From assembly GCA_027483245.1 (NCBI GenBank), contig JAIXVB010000279.1, forward strand, positions 9,847 to 73,846: a stretch of DNA of 64,000 nucleotides, written 5' to 3'. Shown here one piece after another: positions 53,311 to 63,955 of the stretch. This DNA comes from Verrucomicrobiaceae bacterium. Lineage in GTDB: Bacteria; Verrucomicrobiota; Verrucomicrobiia; Verrucomicrobiales; Verrucomicrobiaceae. Positions within the stretch are counted from its first letter, which is position 1. The number at the start of each line of letters is the position of its first letter. Below the pieces are notes generated by a model. That model searched no databases and was not told where the DNA came from. It worked only from the letters and a program-made list of their open reading frames with translations. A program made the translations under genes and the position numbers.

Positions 53311-54192
53311 TTATCGGAAAATAATCGAATGATAACGCCCCTCCTCATTCCAATAACAAATATCACGTTTAAACAATTCGTGGTTACCATCGGGATGCAA
53401 AAGGGTTAGGGTTCTACGCCTAGCTGCTAGATAGTAAAGCCAGCGACAGAGAAATTGCTCATCCTGACCATATGCCCCCCAGTGCGATAGCCCCACGTGT
53501 GTCAATTCTGGAAAGGCCTTTACCTCCTGAGCCATAGCCACATCCCGATTCATAATTATCCAAGCCTGGGCAGAAGCTTTAAATTCAAGCGGCCCTCGAA
53601 TACAACAACTACCATGGATTGACCTGTATATCAGCCGGTTCAATACATCGCGCCAATCACTTGTTGTAGTCCTAACAAGGAATACGCCCAAATCTAAAGC
53701 AACACGCACAATATTTTGATAATCACCTAACGCATAGTTGTCCGCTCCACGAGCTACGCACAATACATCTTCCTCGACTGGCAAGTACCTCCATAACATT
53801 CCAGGCATAGATTCCCAGGAGGCGTATTCCATCAGGAAAATCTCAACATCTAGGGGAATAAAGTCGATCAGAAACGATAGATCTCGGGCCAGATAAACTC
53901 TATGAACCCATCCCTCTGGTAAAATTTGGCGACACCCATCTAGAAATGGTAAAAAATAATTTCCCCACCAAGACACACTATGGCGACCCGACAAATGAGG
54001 CTCTTGTAGGGCCTTCAATGATGCAGGTCTATGCAACCAAAGATGAGGAGCATGCGTCCCCCAGTATAATGAGGTGGACACAACGACCTTTTTAGCAACC
54101 GGGATCACATTGATTCTATCTGAAACGCTAAAGAGCTCCGGCAGAGTATGCGCATGAGAATCACGAATAAACTGGGGGAATACATCTTGCAT
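53311..54192 (-). CDS. Uncharacterised glycosyltransferase-like protein
   Basis: VVSTSLYWG...GWVHRVY...GMLWRYLP...RGAD...GQDEQFL, matching the SFSLWG/GMFWRF motif family; function inferred. Confidence 0.45.
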   Translation of the reverse strand: MQDVFPQFIRDSHAHTLPELFSVSDRINVIPVAKKVVVSTSLYWGTHAPHLWLHRPASLKALQEPHLSGRHSVSWWGNYFLPFLDGCRQILPEGWVHRVYLARDLSFLIDFIPLDVEIFLMEYASWESMPGMLWRYLPVEEDVLCVARGADNYALGDYQNIVRVALDLGVFLVRTTTSDWRDVLNRLIYRSIHGSCCIRGPLEFKASAQAWIIMNRDVAMAQEVKAFPELTHVGLSHWGAYGQDEQFLCRWLYYLAARRRTLTLLHPDGNHELFKRDICYWNEEGRYHSIIFR

Positions 54193-54193
54193 G

Positions 54194-54970
54194 TCAATCT
54201 CGAGGCCGCCCATTTGCATCAATGAAAAATGGAGGCCGCATGACCAGTTTCCACTGTTCATTAGTTAGTGTTTCCTTATCCAGTAAAGATGAGTCGCTAT
54301 TGTTCCACCCGGGAGTTGGAGGCGTTAAATAGCTGTCTCCTTGAAGAGGATTACGCCTAAATTGAACGCCACCTGGAACCACGCGAATTAGAATACTTCT
54401 CCTGGGATGAGAGTGGCCTCTGTGATAAGTTCCGTGCGTAAGCGCTTCAGTGAAGATAATTATAGAACCAGCTTTTTGGGGAAGCTGAATCATATGAGGA
54501 TGCTTATCAATCTCAAACCATTCAGGCGGACAATCCACATTTGATTTGTGCGAACCAGGGACACAACAAAACCCTCCCGCTCCTGCCGGGATATCCATAA
54601 GCGCAATGCTGATAGTAAGAAGTGAAGTATAAGGCCTACCACGTTGAAAACTATACGTCACTCCAAGATCGACTATGTGACTTTGGTGATGAAGTCGTCC
54701 TTTGGTGGAGTAAAATTGTTCACTAACGCCGAATGCGTGATCAATTCTAAATCCTTTGCCGAGCAAACACTGTAATGTGGATGACAAGGCCCCCAATGAA
54801 AGGAGATCGGTCCAAGGGACTCCCCAAGCAAAGTTAATATCGAACATATCACGACCGGCAATCTTTTGATCCCAACATGCATTTAACTGAACCAAGCATT
54901 CATTGCTTATATGATTATCAACCTTTAAATAACCATTGAGATCAAAAGAATATTTATCTTCGCTATTCAT
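54194..54970 (-). CDS. Phytanoyl-CoA dioxygenase (PhyH) family 2OG-Fe(II) enzyme
   Basis: FDLNGYL, LHHQSH, CVPGSHKS, KAGSIIIFTEALTHGT; ATG 54970 overlaps the upstream stop. Confidence 0.8.
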   Translation of the reverse strand: MNSEDKYSFDLNGYLKVDNHISNECLVQLNACWDQKIAGRDMFDINFAWGVPWTDLLSLGALSSTLQCLLGKGFRIDHAFGVSEQFYSTKGRLHHQSHIVDLGVTYSFQRGRPYTSLLTISIALMDIPAGAGGFCCVPGSHKSNVDCPPEWFEIDKHPHMIQLPQKAGSIIIFTEALTHGTYHRGHSHPRRSILIRVVPGGVQFRRNPLQGDSYLTPPTPGWNNSDSSLLDKETLTNEQWKLVMRPPFFIDANGRPRD

Positions 54971-61204: not shown

Positions 61205-61283
61205 AATGTATAATTTTGGTTAAAATGTTATTTTTGATGTTGCTAAGATGGCGTAGGGAGCATTTAATTGTTCACAACGCTTA

Positions 61284-62363
61284 ATGTCAACACCAGATTT
61301 AATTTTCACCGAAGAATCATCCATATTTCGGGCGCCGAAATTGATTCCCATGGGTAAAAATGATGTTCAAAAGATCATTCTATACAACGACCAGTCGCCT
61401 GGAGACATAATAATGCTTACCGCTGCTGTTCGAGATTTACACCGGTCATACCCAGGACGATTCTTGACTGATGTCCGCAGTCGTTGTCCTGACCTCTGGT
61501 TGTACAACCCTTTCATAACTAAACTGGAAGATTCTGCCGATGATGTTAGGGTAATACCGTGTAAATACCCGCTTATTAACCGGGCAAATCAATGGCCGTA
61601 TCACTTCATTCATGGATTTATACACTTCCTGAATAAGGAGCTTAAACTTGCAATCAGGCCTTCAGCTTTTAAAGGTGACATTCATATGAGTGCGTTTGAA
61701 TGCTCGCAGAATTCATATATTCATGATCTCACCTCGCTTGATATGCCATTTTGGGTTGTCGCGGCTGGCGGAAAGTGGGACTACACCGTAAAGTGGTGGT
61801 CAACTGAGCGCTATCAATCAGTTATCGATGCGTTTCGAGGGCGGATAGTTTTCGTGCAAATAGGGCATCAAAACCATCACCATCCTCCGCTTAGAGGTGT
61901 TATCAATCTAACCGGTAAGACGACACTACGTCAGTTGGTCCATTTAATTCACCATGCTCAAGGGGTTCTATGTCCAATCACTGGAGCTATGCATATGGCG
62001 CCAGCAATACCAACTAGAGGTGACCGTCCGGGTCTTCGTGCCTGTGTTGTAATCGCAGGAGGAAGGGAGCCTCCGCATTGGGAGAGCTATCCGAATCATC
62101 AGTTCGTGCACCGCGTGGGAATGTTAACGTGCTGTGAAACTGGTGGCTGCTGGAAGGCTCGAACAATCCCTTTAGGAGATGGGGACAAAAAAGATTCGGA
62201 AGAGTGGCTTTGCCGTCAGGTGACAGACGGGCTCCCTCGTTGTATGAGCATGATAACCCCTGAAGAAATTATAGCCAGGATCAACGGTTATTTTGAAGGA
62301 GGCGCACTAAACTATCTCACTTCATCGGAAGTGAAAGCTATTGGTGACATAGTAGGATGGTAG
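61284..62363 (+). CDS. Glycosyltransferase family 9-like protein
   Basis: SPGDIIMLTAAVRDL, GGKWDYTVKWW, INLTGKTTLRQLVHLIHHAQGVL..GAMHMA. Confidence 0.8.
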   Translation: MSTPDLIFTEESSIFRAPKLIPMGKNDVQKIILYNDQSPGDIIMLTAAVRDLHRSYPGRFLTDVRSRCPDLWLYNPFITKLEDSADDVRVIPCKYPLINRANQWPYHFIHGFIHFLNKELKLAIRPSAFKGDIHMSAFECSQNSYIHDLTSLDMPFWVVAAGGKWDYTVKWWSTERYQSVIDAFRGRIVFVQIGHQNHHHPPLRGVINLTGKTTLRQLVHLIHHAQGVLCPITGAMHMAPAIPTRGDRPGLRACVVIAGGREPPHWESYPNHQFVHRVGMLTCCETGGCWKARTIPLGDGDKKDSEEWLCRQVTDGLPRCMSMITPEEIIARINGYFEGGALNYLTSSEVKAIGDIVGW

Positions 62364-63955
62364 TATTGGCAGTCTGCAATAATGATATGAACAAGCTATT
62401 TATAGGCCCATGGATTGGGGAATTTGGGGTCGAACTTTTGCGGTGGCAAAGCATCGCCCGCACTGTCGCGCAAAGTCGAGTTTGGTCTGAGGTTATAGTA
62501 GCCACCCATCCTGATAGGTTTTTCTTATATGAGGATTTCGCGGATAAGTTTGTGGCTTATAAACCGAAAACTATCCATACCGTTGGGTTTGGATGCATAG
62601 GTCATCGAGACAAAAATATTCATGAAGATTTTATAAATACTGAATGCGGTGATGTCTGGCTGAACCCTCAGGTTGAAGCTGAGACAGAAAAACTTTACTA
62701 CCCAATCAGTGCATGCTCTCCAACTTACCGGAATTTTTCTGAAAATGTTGAATGTAACACTAAGTACTACGATCTTCTAATTCATGCGAGAGCAACCAAT
62801 AAGTCTGGACACAGTTTCAAGAATTGGAGCATAGCAAATTATAACGCTCTAATTGAAGCACTTCCACCTATTTGGAAAATAGCTAGTATAGGTGCAGTTG
62901 ATGGCGCTCATAAGATAAAAGGTACGGATGATTTACGAGGTGTGTCGCTACGCAACTTGGCTTCGTGCTTTAAAGGCTCTGGCATGGTAGTAGGTACGTC
63001 AAGCGGTACAATTCATTATGCAACACATTGCGGTCTGCCTGTTGTTACGTGGATTGGAAGGGATGATCGTTACAACTATTATCCCGTCTGGAATCCATTT
63101 TCAGCACCCATTTGTTGCCTGGCAGATTGGCAACCTCGTCCAGAAGTTGTCGCCCACAAAGTTTTGGAGATGCGGAAATTAATCGAATCACAACAACAAC
63201 CAGTTAGTATGGTGGTGGCAGGAACAATCTGTGGCGGGTATAGAGAGTTTGTGGCTGAAATGGCGGATTTGAATCCACAAACGCATGTTACCGTTTGGAA
63301 TGCATGTGAAAGCCAGGAAGTGCGAGGGCATCCCCACATATTGGATTTTCTCCCAAGTATTAATTGCTTTCCTAAAGCCTTCCATCGCCAAGATACTCAG
63401 AAAACGATCACCGACTATAATGCAGACAGCAGTTGCCCTGTTAGAGTATTGACCTTTCAGAATATACGACTGATTGATCTAAGCAGATCCGAAGAGGTGC
63501 AATCAGCCAGATTAATTGTGATAGTTATTCGAGATTTAGCTAACAATATCGCTTCATTGAAAAGTGATGAACTCTCGCTAGGAAGACATTCATTTCTTAG
63601 CCAAGACTTCTTCGAAGTTATTCGGACTGGTGAGGAATACTTGCGTGAGGCATGCGGCGTAACGAATGTGCTAGGCGAACTTAAATATAAAACGGTATTC
63701 ATAAGTTACAATAGATGGTCCAATGACTTAAAGTATAGAAAGGACATCATTAATGTCATCAAATCCTACAGCGATTTGGATTTCTCAGTCCTGAACACAA
63801 CATTGAAGGCCACACGCAACAATGAAGTCTGGCAAAAATTTAGTTCTGACCGTTCATTTTGGAACGCGTTCGGTAGGCGGTCGACTTTTGAATTAGAGAA
63901 GAAATTACACTTGGATTGCATGCCAACATATGGCGACCCGCCGACCATTTCCTGA
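62357..63955 (+). CDS. GT9-like N-terminal domain fused to a sulfotransferase-like C-terminal domain
   Basis: KNWSIANY..DLRG.SLRNLA..VGTSSGTIHYA; C-terminal IVIRDLANNIASL and ISYNRW..KYR resemble a P-loop sulfotransferase fold. Confidence 0.55.
   Translation: MVVLAVCNNDMNKLFIGPWIGEFGVELLRWQSIARTVAQSRVWSEVIVATHPDRFFLYEDFADKFVAYKPKTIHTVGFGCIGHRDKNIHEDFINTECGDVWLNPQVEAETEKLYYPISACSPTYRNFSENVECNTKYYDLLIHARATNKSGHSFKNWSIANYNALIEALPPIWKIASIGAVDGAHKIKGTDDLRGVSLRNLASCFKGSGMVVGTSSGTIHYATHCGLPVVTWIGRDDRYNYYPVWNPFSAPICCLADWQPRPEVVAHKVLEMRKLIESQQQPVSMVVAGTICGGYREFVAEMADLNPQTHVTVWNACESQEVRGHPHILDFLPSINCFPKAFHRQDTQKTITDYNADSSCPVRVLTFQNIRLIDLSRSEEVQSARLIVIVIRDLANNIASLKSDELSLGRHSFLSQDFFEVIRTGEEYLREACGVTNVLGELKYKTVFISYNRWSNDLKYRKDIINVIKSYSDLDFSVLNTTLKATRNNEVWQKFSSDRSFWNAFGRRSTFELEKKLHLDCMPTYGDPPTIS

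Follow-up and report, generated by a model that had tools for sequence, protein, structure and literature searches.

A cassette that joins an RHS/YD-repeat polymorphic toxin to a set of putative tailoring enzymes was found in a 64,000-nucleotide (nt) stretch of DNA from a Verrucomicrobiaceae bacterium (GenBank assembly GCA_027483245.1, contig JAIXVB010000279.1, positions 9,847 to 73,846 of the forward strand; this whole stretch is hereafter called the window). The enzyme genes encode a glycosyltransferase (GT) of family 9, a protein combining GT9-like and sulfotransferase-fold domains, a PhyH-family oxygenase and a protein with a GT-A-like fold. RHS, GT9 and the two-domain protein occur together in every locus type that was informative, and on the strength of this recurrent linkage a functional connection of the toxin with the tailoring enzymes is well supported. 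RHS toxins are widespread. Searches of the literature gave no report of RHS loci in which GT9, a sulfotransferase or PhyH is a partner. The features of the cassette are as follows (lengths in amino acids, aa).

61049-61204, minus strand: acidic peptide gene, 51 aa (open reading frame, ORF; first gene of the predicted RHS operon)
55202-61030, minus strand: RHS/YD-repeat polymorphic toxin, 1942 aa (TIGR03696, TIGR01643)
55880-56134, minus strand: RHS-associated core, aa 1633-1717 (where the conserved shell gives way to the variable toxin)
55205-55879, minus strand: variable C-terminal toxin domain, 225 aa (C-terminal homologues in other RHS proteins)
54967-55191, minus strand: 74-aa protein with two transmembrane (TM) segments, candidate immunity protein (hydropathy and position)
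54194-54970, minus strand: PhyH-family Fe(II)/2-oxoglutarate (2OG) oxygenase, 258 aa (PF05721, E = 5e-9)
53311-54192, minus strand: 293-aa protein with a GT-A/nucleotide-sugar-transferase-like fold (predicted structure)
61284-62363, plus strand: GT9-family glycosyltransferase, 359 aa (PF01075)
62357-63955, plus strand: 532-aa protein with GT9-like and sulfotransferase-fold domains (predicted structure)
53122-53230, strand not applicable: 109-bp imperfect direct repeat, left copy (self-BLAST of contig C333)

The genes are arranged in two divergent blocks. The GT9 and 532-aa genes overlap by 7 nt and are oriented in the forward direction, opposite to RHS. In the reverse direction, the gene for the acidic peptide, which the initial annotation had overlooked, is separated from the RHS start by an 18-nt spacer. 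The RHS stop codon TAG (55202-55204) is followed after 10 nt by the ATG of the 74-aa ORF at 55191, the stop of this ORF overlaps the PhyH start in the ATGA at 54967-54970, and 1 nt separates the PhyH stop TGA (54194-54196) from the ATG of the 293-aa gene at 54192. The gene order and junctions, checked at the stop and start coordinates, are those originally described. The geometry of the 10-nt gap, the ATGA overlap and the 1-nt gap fits a single operon.

A locus type was taken as informative when it contained a two-domain 532-family gene with sufficient flank; apart from the window, the loci came from metagenomes and metagenome-assembled genomes (MAGs). Both GT9 and an orthologous RHS were present in all eight such types, at identities of 42-62% for the RHS N-terminus, 51-65% for GT9 and 41-71% for the 532 N-domain. 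The linkage is not unique to this genome, a possibility that had been named as fatal to the idea of a toxin-enzyme connection. The layout of the window, with a 530-aa protein and GT9 divergent from the peptide and RHS, is retained in L002-L005 (PhyH identity of 70%) and L006-L008 (55%), where RHS is followed by variable small genes, PhyH and a 294-aa protein. More distant 532-family members (48-36% identity) were found in L020, L021, L023, L024/L036/L037 and L039, again with a GT9 neighbour and divergent from an orthologous RHS of 1.77-1.92 kaa. No two-domain enzyme was seen apart from RHS, with the possible exception of the one in L022, whose available sequence contains no RHS. Homologues of the 532 N-domain only (28-35% identity) are widespread without RHS. 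The two-domain family is rare: among 401 genomes sampled across the phylum a single one encodes it, and it is absent from three genomes of the same genus.

The conserved unit of these loci is the acidic peptide, the RHS shell and the divergent pair of GT9 and GT9/sulfotransferase-fold genes. The rest of the tailoring set is lineage-specific. PhyH and the GT-A-like gene recur downstream of RHS in one subclade only, that of the window, and most sister loci carry an adenosine 5'-phosphosulfate (APS) kinase and/or methyltransferase(-like) gene. APS kinase is found inside the cassette in L023 and L024/L036. Locus L024 encodes Methyltransf_24 and Methyltransf_21 proteins too, while in L021 a Methyltransf_23-type methyltransferase is accompanied by an additional sulfotransferase-like gene that stands alone. 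A family of ~208 aa with weak methyltransferase matches is shared by L020, L021 and L023. No APS kinase, methyltransferase or ~208-aa gene was found in L039 within its fetched DNA.

The RHS protein contains an RHS-associated core at aa 1633-1717 (TIGR03696, E = 2.7e-15, 56.6 bits against a cut-off of 32.5) and a YD repeat (TIGR01643, E = 1.4e-5); the Pfam RHS_repeat model gave 21.7 bits, marginally below its cut-off of 22. Orthologues match TEN_YD-shell, and comparison with PDB sequences yielded matches to the TccC2, TccC3, YenC2 and RhsA/Rhs family cores. The core ends with ...RDPIAEDAGNNMY...HDFLGL, in which a PxxxxDPxGL-type motif is present. Orthologues in other loci are 50-62% identical, and the BLAST similarity to those of L007, L002 and L009 ceases at aa ~1717, directly past ...RDPI..GG.N.Y....N...D..GL.

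The 225-aa toxin domain that follows has a head rich in Cys, then a run of Gly, two hydrophobic segments and the tail ...DCYDKFCK; it is probably membrane-active. The search with its last ~150 aa among 1.84e9 representatives (E <= 1e-3) gave 19 matches, from which two of repeat type were set aside; the remaining 17 homologues are all located at the C-termini of their own proteins. Eight homologues were retrieved, and the six that keep upstream sequence all lie directly behind an RHS core, including cores of the classical NPQSLNRY...DPLGL type. This occurrence behind other RHS cores is the signature of a C-terminal module of polymorphic toxins. Small TM ORFs, mutually unrelated in sequence, occupy the position after RHS in seven of the eight locus types. 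Hydropathy indicates two TM segments in the 74-aa ORF, which in the window lies 10 nt downstream of RHS, and it is a plausible candidate for the immunity protein. Beyond the core motif of RHS, loci have exchanged both the toxin and the small TM ORF that follows it. NCBIfam and Pfam contained no family for the toxin domain, the 74-aa ORF, or the 293-aa and 532-aa proteins.

The variable region of related loci contains additional elements. Downstream of the full RHS, L039 has a second, partial RHS C-terminal segment (330-1658) with 44% identity to the last third of the shell. This segment is a classical 'orphan' module and shows that C-terminal displacement occurs in these cassettes too. A 32-aa ORF between RHS and the Methyltransf_24 gene of L007 (9241-9339; also in L006 and L008) is a PhyH fragment (aa 81-105, 52% identity). 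It resembles a recombination scar, which suggests PhyH as the downstream anchor in the exchange of toxin/immunity modules. In addition, a recurrent signal-peptide protein family (MK..I.H.LI.SL...LPLSAQ...REFKDLL...) is encoded in L002 (9060-9935), L009 (6292-7165), L007 (11725-12762) and L020 (1750-2169), between RHS and the tailoring genes or past them, and sometimes in two copies; the window is devoid of it.

The absence of type VI secretion system (T6SS), PAAR and VgrG genes, reported in the initial annotation, holds for the source genome, which is 92% complete and contains eight RHS cores: TssC (PF05943), PAAR (PF05488) and VgrG (PF05954) gave no match there. The N-terminus of the cassette RHS, MAAINTLRGDGIATTLNH..., has no hydrophobic leader and no Sec signal peptide. 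Two other RHS genes of the same genome, C20:673-5391 (+) and C80:7503-14810 (-), possess Sec-type signal peptides that precede an acidic Cys-rich stretch, and the cassette RHS lacks both. A seven-sequence profile of the N-terminal 520 aa found no PDB relative by sequence, and a prePAAR-like motif at the N-terminus was discarded after inspection of the sequence. None of the loci contains a conserved exporter or peptidase, and genes for a flippase, a polymerase or a lipid-carrier glycosyltransferase are missing from the cassette. To our knowledge, the route by which many RHS toxins devoid of a T6SS, Tc or Sec signal leave the cell is not known.

Wherever the 5' end is intact, in seven locus types, RHS is preceded by an acidic Pro-rich peptide gene of 49-89 aa; homologues of the window peptide are located directly upstream of RHS in L002, L006/7, L020, L021, L023 and L024. 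The window peptide (51 aa) has a pI of ~4, no Lys or Arg, a high content of Pro, Gly and Asp, three Cys and one Tyr. The N-terminus is conserved as MP(D/E/Y)GSDDPT.P..P.P.(D/E)PC, and most of the peptides have a Tyr in acidic context (PPYTGDDDP, DPYTPDAGDDEEE, PPYPDDDEDDDD). The peptide was also considered as an N-terminal extension of RHS produced by stop read-through; the two are in frame in four of seven loci, which does not exceed chance, and the peptide was therefore treated as a separate gene. The RHS at C20:673-5391 (+) of the same genome has, after its signal peptide, an acidic Cys-rich stretch (NYDPGCGNTGDNDCGCEC) similar to the cassette peptide, which may be a split-off N-terminal module.

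The 359-aa enzyme is assigned to GT9 with 31.3 bits against a PF01075 cut-off of 22, and its orthologues (51-65% identical) adjoin every RHS of this clade. A C-terminal cluster of cysteines (C283, C284, C289, C310 and C320) is invariant in eight orthologues and lies in the region corresponding to the iron finger of TibC. TibC-type GT9 enzymes heptosylate autotransporters before export (PMC4358343). TibC is a dodecamer, and its C-lobe holds an iron finger formed by four cysteines, 339, 342, 358 and 370, with the spacing C-x2-C-x15-C-x11-C. The source genome contains a GmhA-like gene (E = 2.9e-53, under the equivalog cut-off), which makes ADP-heptose plausible.

The AlphaFold model of the 532-aa protein, built with a 27-sequence alignment, has a predicted local distance difference test (pLDDT) score of 88.5 and consists of a GT9-like GT-B domain (aa ~1-280) and a sulfotransferase-fold domain (aa ~281-532). 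The Foldseek matches of the N-terminal half are 3tov (5.9e-5), TibC (4rb4/4rap, 1.8e-4), WaaC (~1e-3) and also WaaF, with 15-16% identity to TibC against 12-13% to WaaC. The C-terminal half matches TPST2 (3ap3, E = 1.3e-3, probability 0.99), as well as TPST1 and NDST1. The family comprises 31 clusters among 5.8e9 proteins. One member, a 911-aa protein of L022 (1017-3752), is fused to a radical-SAM/SPASM domain and followed by a Methyltransf_21 gene. Radical-SAM/SPASM domains typically modify peptides or proteins. Sequence and profile searches of the PDB (single sequences and three-sequence profiles) were uninformative for the 293-aa, 532-aa and GT9 proteins.

The 5'-phosphosulfate-binding (PSB) loop of the sulfotransferase-fold domain was tested with the pattern G-x-x-[KR]-S-G-[ST/H]. 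Most family members have an intact GTKRSGHH loop, the form seen in the sister clusters and intact in the loci with their own APS kinase. The loop is GTICGGYR in the window and G(T/S)ICSGYR in P0145-P0147. The window subclade is made up of four clusters, P0144-P0147, and the loop is degenerate exactly where PhyH and the 293-aa gene occur. No match to APS kinase (PF01583) was found in the source genome. Given the degenerate loop and the lack of this kinase, sulfation dependent on 3'-phosphoadenosine 5'-phosphosulfate (PAPS) is unlikely in this genome, and the window domain is probably not a PAPS-dependent enzyme. The original label 'GT9-sulfotransferase' is correct for both folds and probably does not extend to sulfotransferase activity here.

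The PhyH gene product matches PF05721 with 37.2 bits against a cut-off of 22 (E = 5e-9), and its orthologues, 54-70% identical, are encoded downstream of RHS in L002-L010. Residues H94, H179 and R190/R191, expected to bind iron and 2OG, are invariant. The 293-aa protein belongs to a rare, unannotated family of 23 clusters among 5.8e9 proteins with the motifs VVSTSLYW, ARGAD and GQDEQFL, of which ARGAD and QDEQ are invariant in the alignment. Its predicted structure (pLDDT 92.6) gave only weak Foldseek matches in the PDB (best E = 0.014, template modelling score ~0.3), among them ColGalT1. Every top match has a GT-A or nucleotidyl-transferase fold, in keeping, at the fold level, with the earlier description of this gene as 'GT-like'. 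Unannotated giant-virus ORFans are matched better (BFVD, E = 2.4e-8). Distant family members are located in RHS-free clusters of a Prosthecobacter MAG and an uncultured Verrucomicrobiaceae MAG, together with APS kinase, Sulfotransfer_1, Gly_transf_sug and a Mannosyl_trans3-GT9-GT4 protein.

Relatives of the two proteins were also observed in phage-like contigs. A 78-kb ENA scaffold (L011) contains a 49%-identical PhyH relative, a PIF1 helicase and DUF1353, and a 64-kb Logan contig (L013) contains a 37%-identical relative of the 293-aa protein, an SU10 portal and DUF1353. Both carry giant proteins of 3.5-3.6 kaa, with InPase/ddrB-ParB/ART-PolyVal in L013 and DUF7178 in L011.

We infer, tentatively and at a likelihood slightly short of even, that the cassette enzymes act in the cytoplasm on the cassette's own product, namely the acidic peptide and/or the N-terminal part of RHS. 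This is suggested by the ever-present acidic peptide with its Pro, Ser, Thr, Tyr and Cys residues, in most cases with a Tyr in acidic context, by the protein-modifying enzymes among the structural neighbours (TibC, TPST) and by the radical-SAM/SPASM fusion in one family member. The lack of a flippase, polymerase or lipid-carrier enzyme in the cassette and the conserved GT9 Cys cluster where TibC has its iron finger point in the same direction. The GT9-type enzymes would add heptose-type sugars; in sister loci sulfate and methyl groups would be added as well, and in the window subclade a hydroxyl group and a further sugar. Such decoration would resemble the heptosylation of autotransporters by TibC-type GT9 enzymes ahead of export, and would help an RHS without a Sec signal, PAAR or VgrG to be exported, to stay at the surface or to bind its target. 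It is possible, if doubtful, that these loci represent an undescribed RHS class, in which a signal-less cocoon is made competent for export, display or recognition by glycosylation plus sulfation/methylation or hydroxylation.

Several features weigh against modification of the cassette's own product. GT9 enzymes classically act on the lipopolysaccharide (LPS) core. The cysteine spacing of the cassette GT9, CC-x4-C-x20-C-x9-C, is unlike that of the TibC finger, and the Foldseek preferences for TibC over WaaC and for TPST over other sulfotransferases are small. The single Tyr of the window peptide is at position 3. In PhyH, the position +2 from H94 is Q in the window copy (H-Q and not x-D/E) and G, T or E in relatives; the acid ligand of the iron triad is therefore not evident, as in halogenase-like or atypical 2OG enzymes. 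The remote homologues of the 293-aa protein and the 532 N-domain lie in RHS-free clusters, a context that looks like glycan, not protein, chemistry. Finally, the 3' end of the 74-aa ORF contains a hairpin with a 10-bp stem followed by GTTTTTTGTA (window 55011-55035, minus strand). Positioned ~40 nt ahead of the PhyH start codon, it could act as an attenuator of read-through into the enzyme genes. The promoter and terminator scan was at background level, terminator-like sites occurring in the region at chance frequency.

The leading alternative, itself rather unlikely, is that the enzymes remodel the envelope by decorating the LPS core or another surface glycan of the producer. The altered glycan could anchor RHS, or the modification could remove the receptor of the conserved RHS part and provide self-protection independent of the toxin type, the 'second immunity layer' of the initial annotation. 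The membership of GT9 in the LPS heptosyltransferase family, the plausible supply of ADP-heptose suggested by the GmhA-like gene and the glycan-type RHS-free clusters of distant 293-aa and N-domain relatives (Sulfotransfer_1, APS kinase, Gly_transf_sug and multi-GT proteins) agree with it, as does the constancy of the enzymes along with the RHS shell, in contrast to the candidate immunity gene, which changes together with the toxin. However, remodelling of the envelope leaves both the invariable acidic peptide and the radical-SAM/SPASM fusion unexplained, it does not account for the protein-modifying enzymes among the structural neighbours, and a host-specific LPS chemistry seems difficult to square with transfer of the cassette from host to host on a variety of elements. 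The initial annotation had proposed either modification of RHS or its cargo or a change of the surface receptor. The functional toxin-enzyme link underlying both proposals is well supported by comparative genomics, with RHS or its cargo and the cell surface as the candidate acceptors.

The cassette is horizontally mobile. It corresponds to an 11.4-kb low-GC segment with these seven genes only (GC 0.43-0.48 against ~0.57 outside) and is bracketed by the two copies of the 109-bp direct repeat, which have 80% identity (self-BLAST of contig C333). The right copy is located past the window end, at window-equivalent 64649-64757, inside IS66 transposase remnants. The comM (Mg-chelatase-like) gene is interrupted at profile position ~155-160, its 5' part being upstream of the window; the pieces lie at C333:8456-8938, at window 48363-48512 and at window-equivalent 66082-66237 (L001 ~13930-14085). 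The two comM 3' fragments are diverged (72.5% identity over 411 bp); comM thus holds two stacked islands, and the entire window consists of island DNA. Paralogous Xre-type helix-turn-helix genes are found on both sides of the cassette, at window 52730-53275 (-) and L001 13483-13944 (-), and a third paralogue at 47893-48375 is beside the first comM 3' fragment; these paralogues appear to mark island ends. The flanks of related loci contain an integrase (L006/7), TrwC/TrwB conjugation genes (L021), TIR, KAP NTPase and QatB-D defence genes (L020) and GIY-YIG, PDDEXK and Mrr (L023).

Such surroundings are compatible with intracellular conflict, in which RHS would stay unexported as an encapsulated membrane toxin and be freed upon phage attack, leading to abortive infection, and the enzymes would make or sense the trigger or modify phage components. 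The lack of a Sec signal and of PAAR, VgrG or TssC partners, the defence and mobile islands (the genes listed above for L020 and L023 and candidate conflict genes around the window) and the PhyH and 293-aa relatives in phage-like contigs are in line with this role. We nevertheless consider it improbable. The C-terminal domain shared with classical RHS proteins and the co-varying small TM ORF are a hallmark of exported polymorphic toxins, no conserved sensor or nuclease partner was found, and a location in defence islands is expected equally for competition cargo. Hitch-hiking of the enzymes and RHS as functionally unlinked cargo of one mobile element is very improbable: despite the foreign nature of the segment (low GC, IS66 remnants, position inside comM islands) and the PhyH and 293-aa genes kept in L009/L010 beside a truncated RHS without GT9 and 532, eight locus types, carried by different element backbones, retain the order, orientation and tight spacing with proteins ~40-60% identical, stop/start codon overlaps tie the enzymes to the toxin operon, and every two-domain enzyme observed, L022 possibly excepted, lies beside RHS.

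The cassette was compared with known systems. With RHS/YD polymorphic toxins (Zhang et al. 2012, PMC3482391), including the cocoons of Tc-toxin TcB/TcC and T6SS Rhs effectors, it shares the YD-repeat shell, a DPxGL-type core end, a variable C-terminal toxin found on several scaffolds, a co-varying small downstream gene and a location on mobile DNA. Unlike them, the cassette RHS lacks recognised trafficking domains, PAAR, VgrG, TcA and a Sec signal included, and its constant partners are glycosyl-, sulfo- and methyltransferases, an oxygenase and an acidic peptide. In PMC3482391, glycosyltransferases are named among toxin domains only, and a dioxygenase or hydroxylase is not mentioned. The TibC/AAH systems with TibA/AIDA-I (PMC4358343) are similar in that a GT9-fold enzyme gene adjoins the gene of a very large beta-rich protein, in the structural match of the 532-aa N-domain to TibC (E = 1.8e-4) and in the C-terminal Cys cluster of GT9, comparable with the iron finger. 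The differences are the partner, which is RHS and no autotransporter, and the presence of two GT9-type genes and further enzymes. The RaxST-RaxX system of Xanthomonas (PMC4646787) is resembled by sister loci, where a sulfotransferase fold with an intact PAPS loop is paired with a short peptide having a Tyr in acidic context, two of these loci containing APS kinase. In contrast to RaxST-RaxX, the cassette has no peptidase-containing ABC exporter, its peptide is unrelated, far more acidic and Pro-rich, the window copy has lost the PAPS loop and the source genome has no APS kinase.

A further parallel is protein modification by a hydroxylase and a glycosyltransferase, known for collagen (LH3/ColGalT1) and Skp1 (prolyl hydroxylase/Gnt1). 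The window subclade may be seen as analogous, with a 2OG oxygenase gene followed by a GT-A-like gene near a Pro-rich candidate substrate. The oxygenase, however, is of PhyH type and not a prolyl 4-hydroxylase or lysyl hydroxylase, and the window peptide has no Lys.

The putative 'decorated' RHS class is represented so far by one Verrucomicrobiota genome and by metagenome and MAG contigs. In these loci, a signal-less RHS is tied to fixed tailoring enzymes and an acidic peptide across deep divergence. They provide the first genomic context for two rare unannotated families, the 532-aa fusion (31 clusters) and the 293-aa GT-A-like protein (23 clusters). They also present a natural chemistry swap within one system, since the window subclade has lost the PAPS loop and has PhyH and the GT-A-like protein instead, and two sister loci bring their own APS kinase, an enzyme that the window genome lacks. 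The question of RHS export thereby becomes testable, in terms of what is modified and whether the modification drives export, anchoring or targeting.

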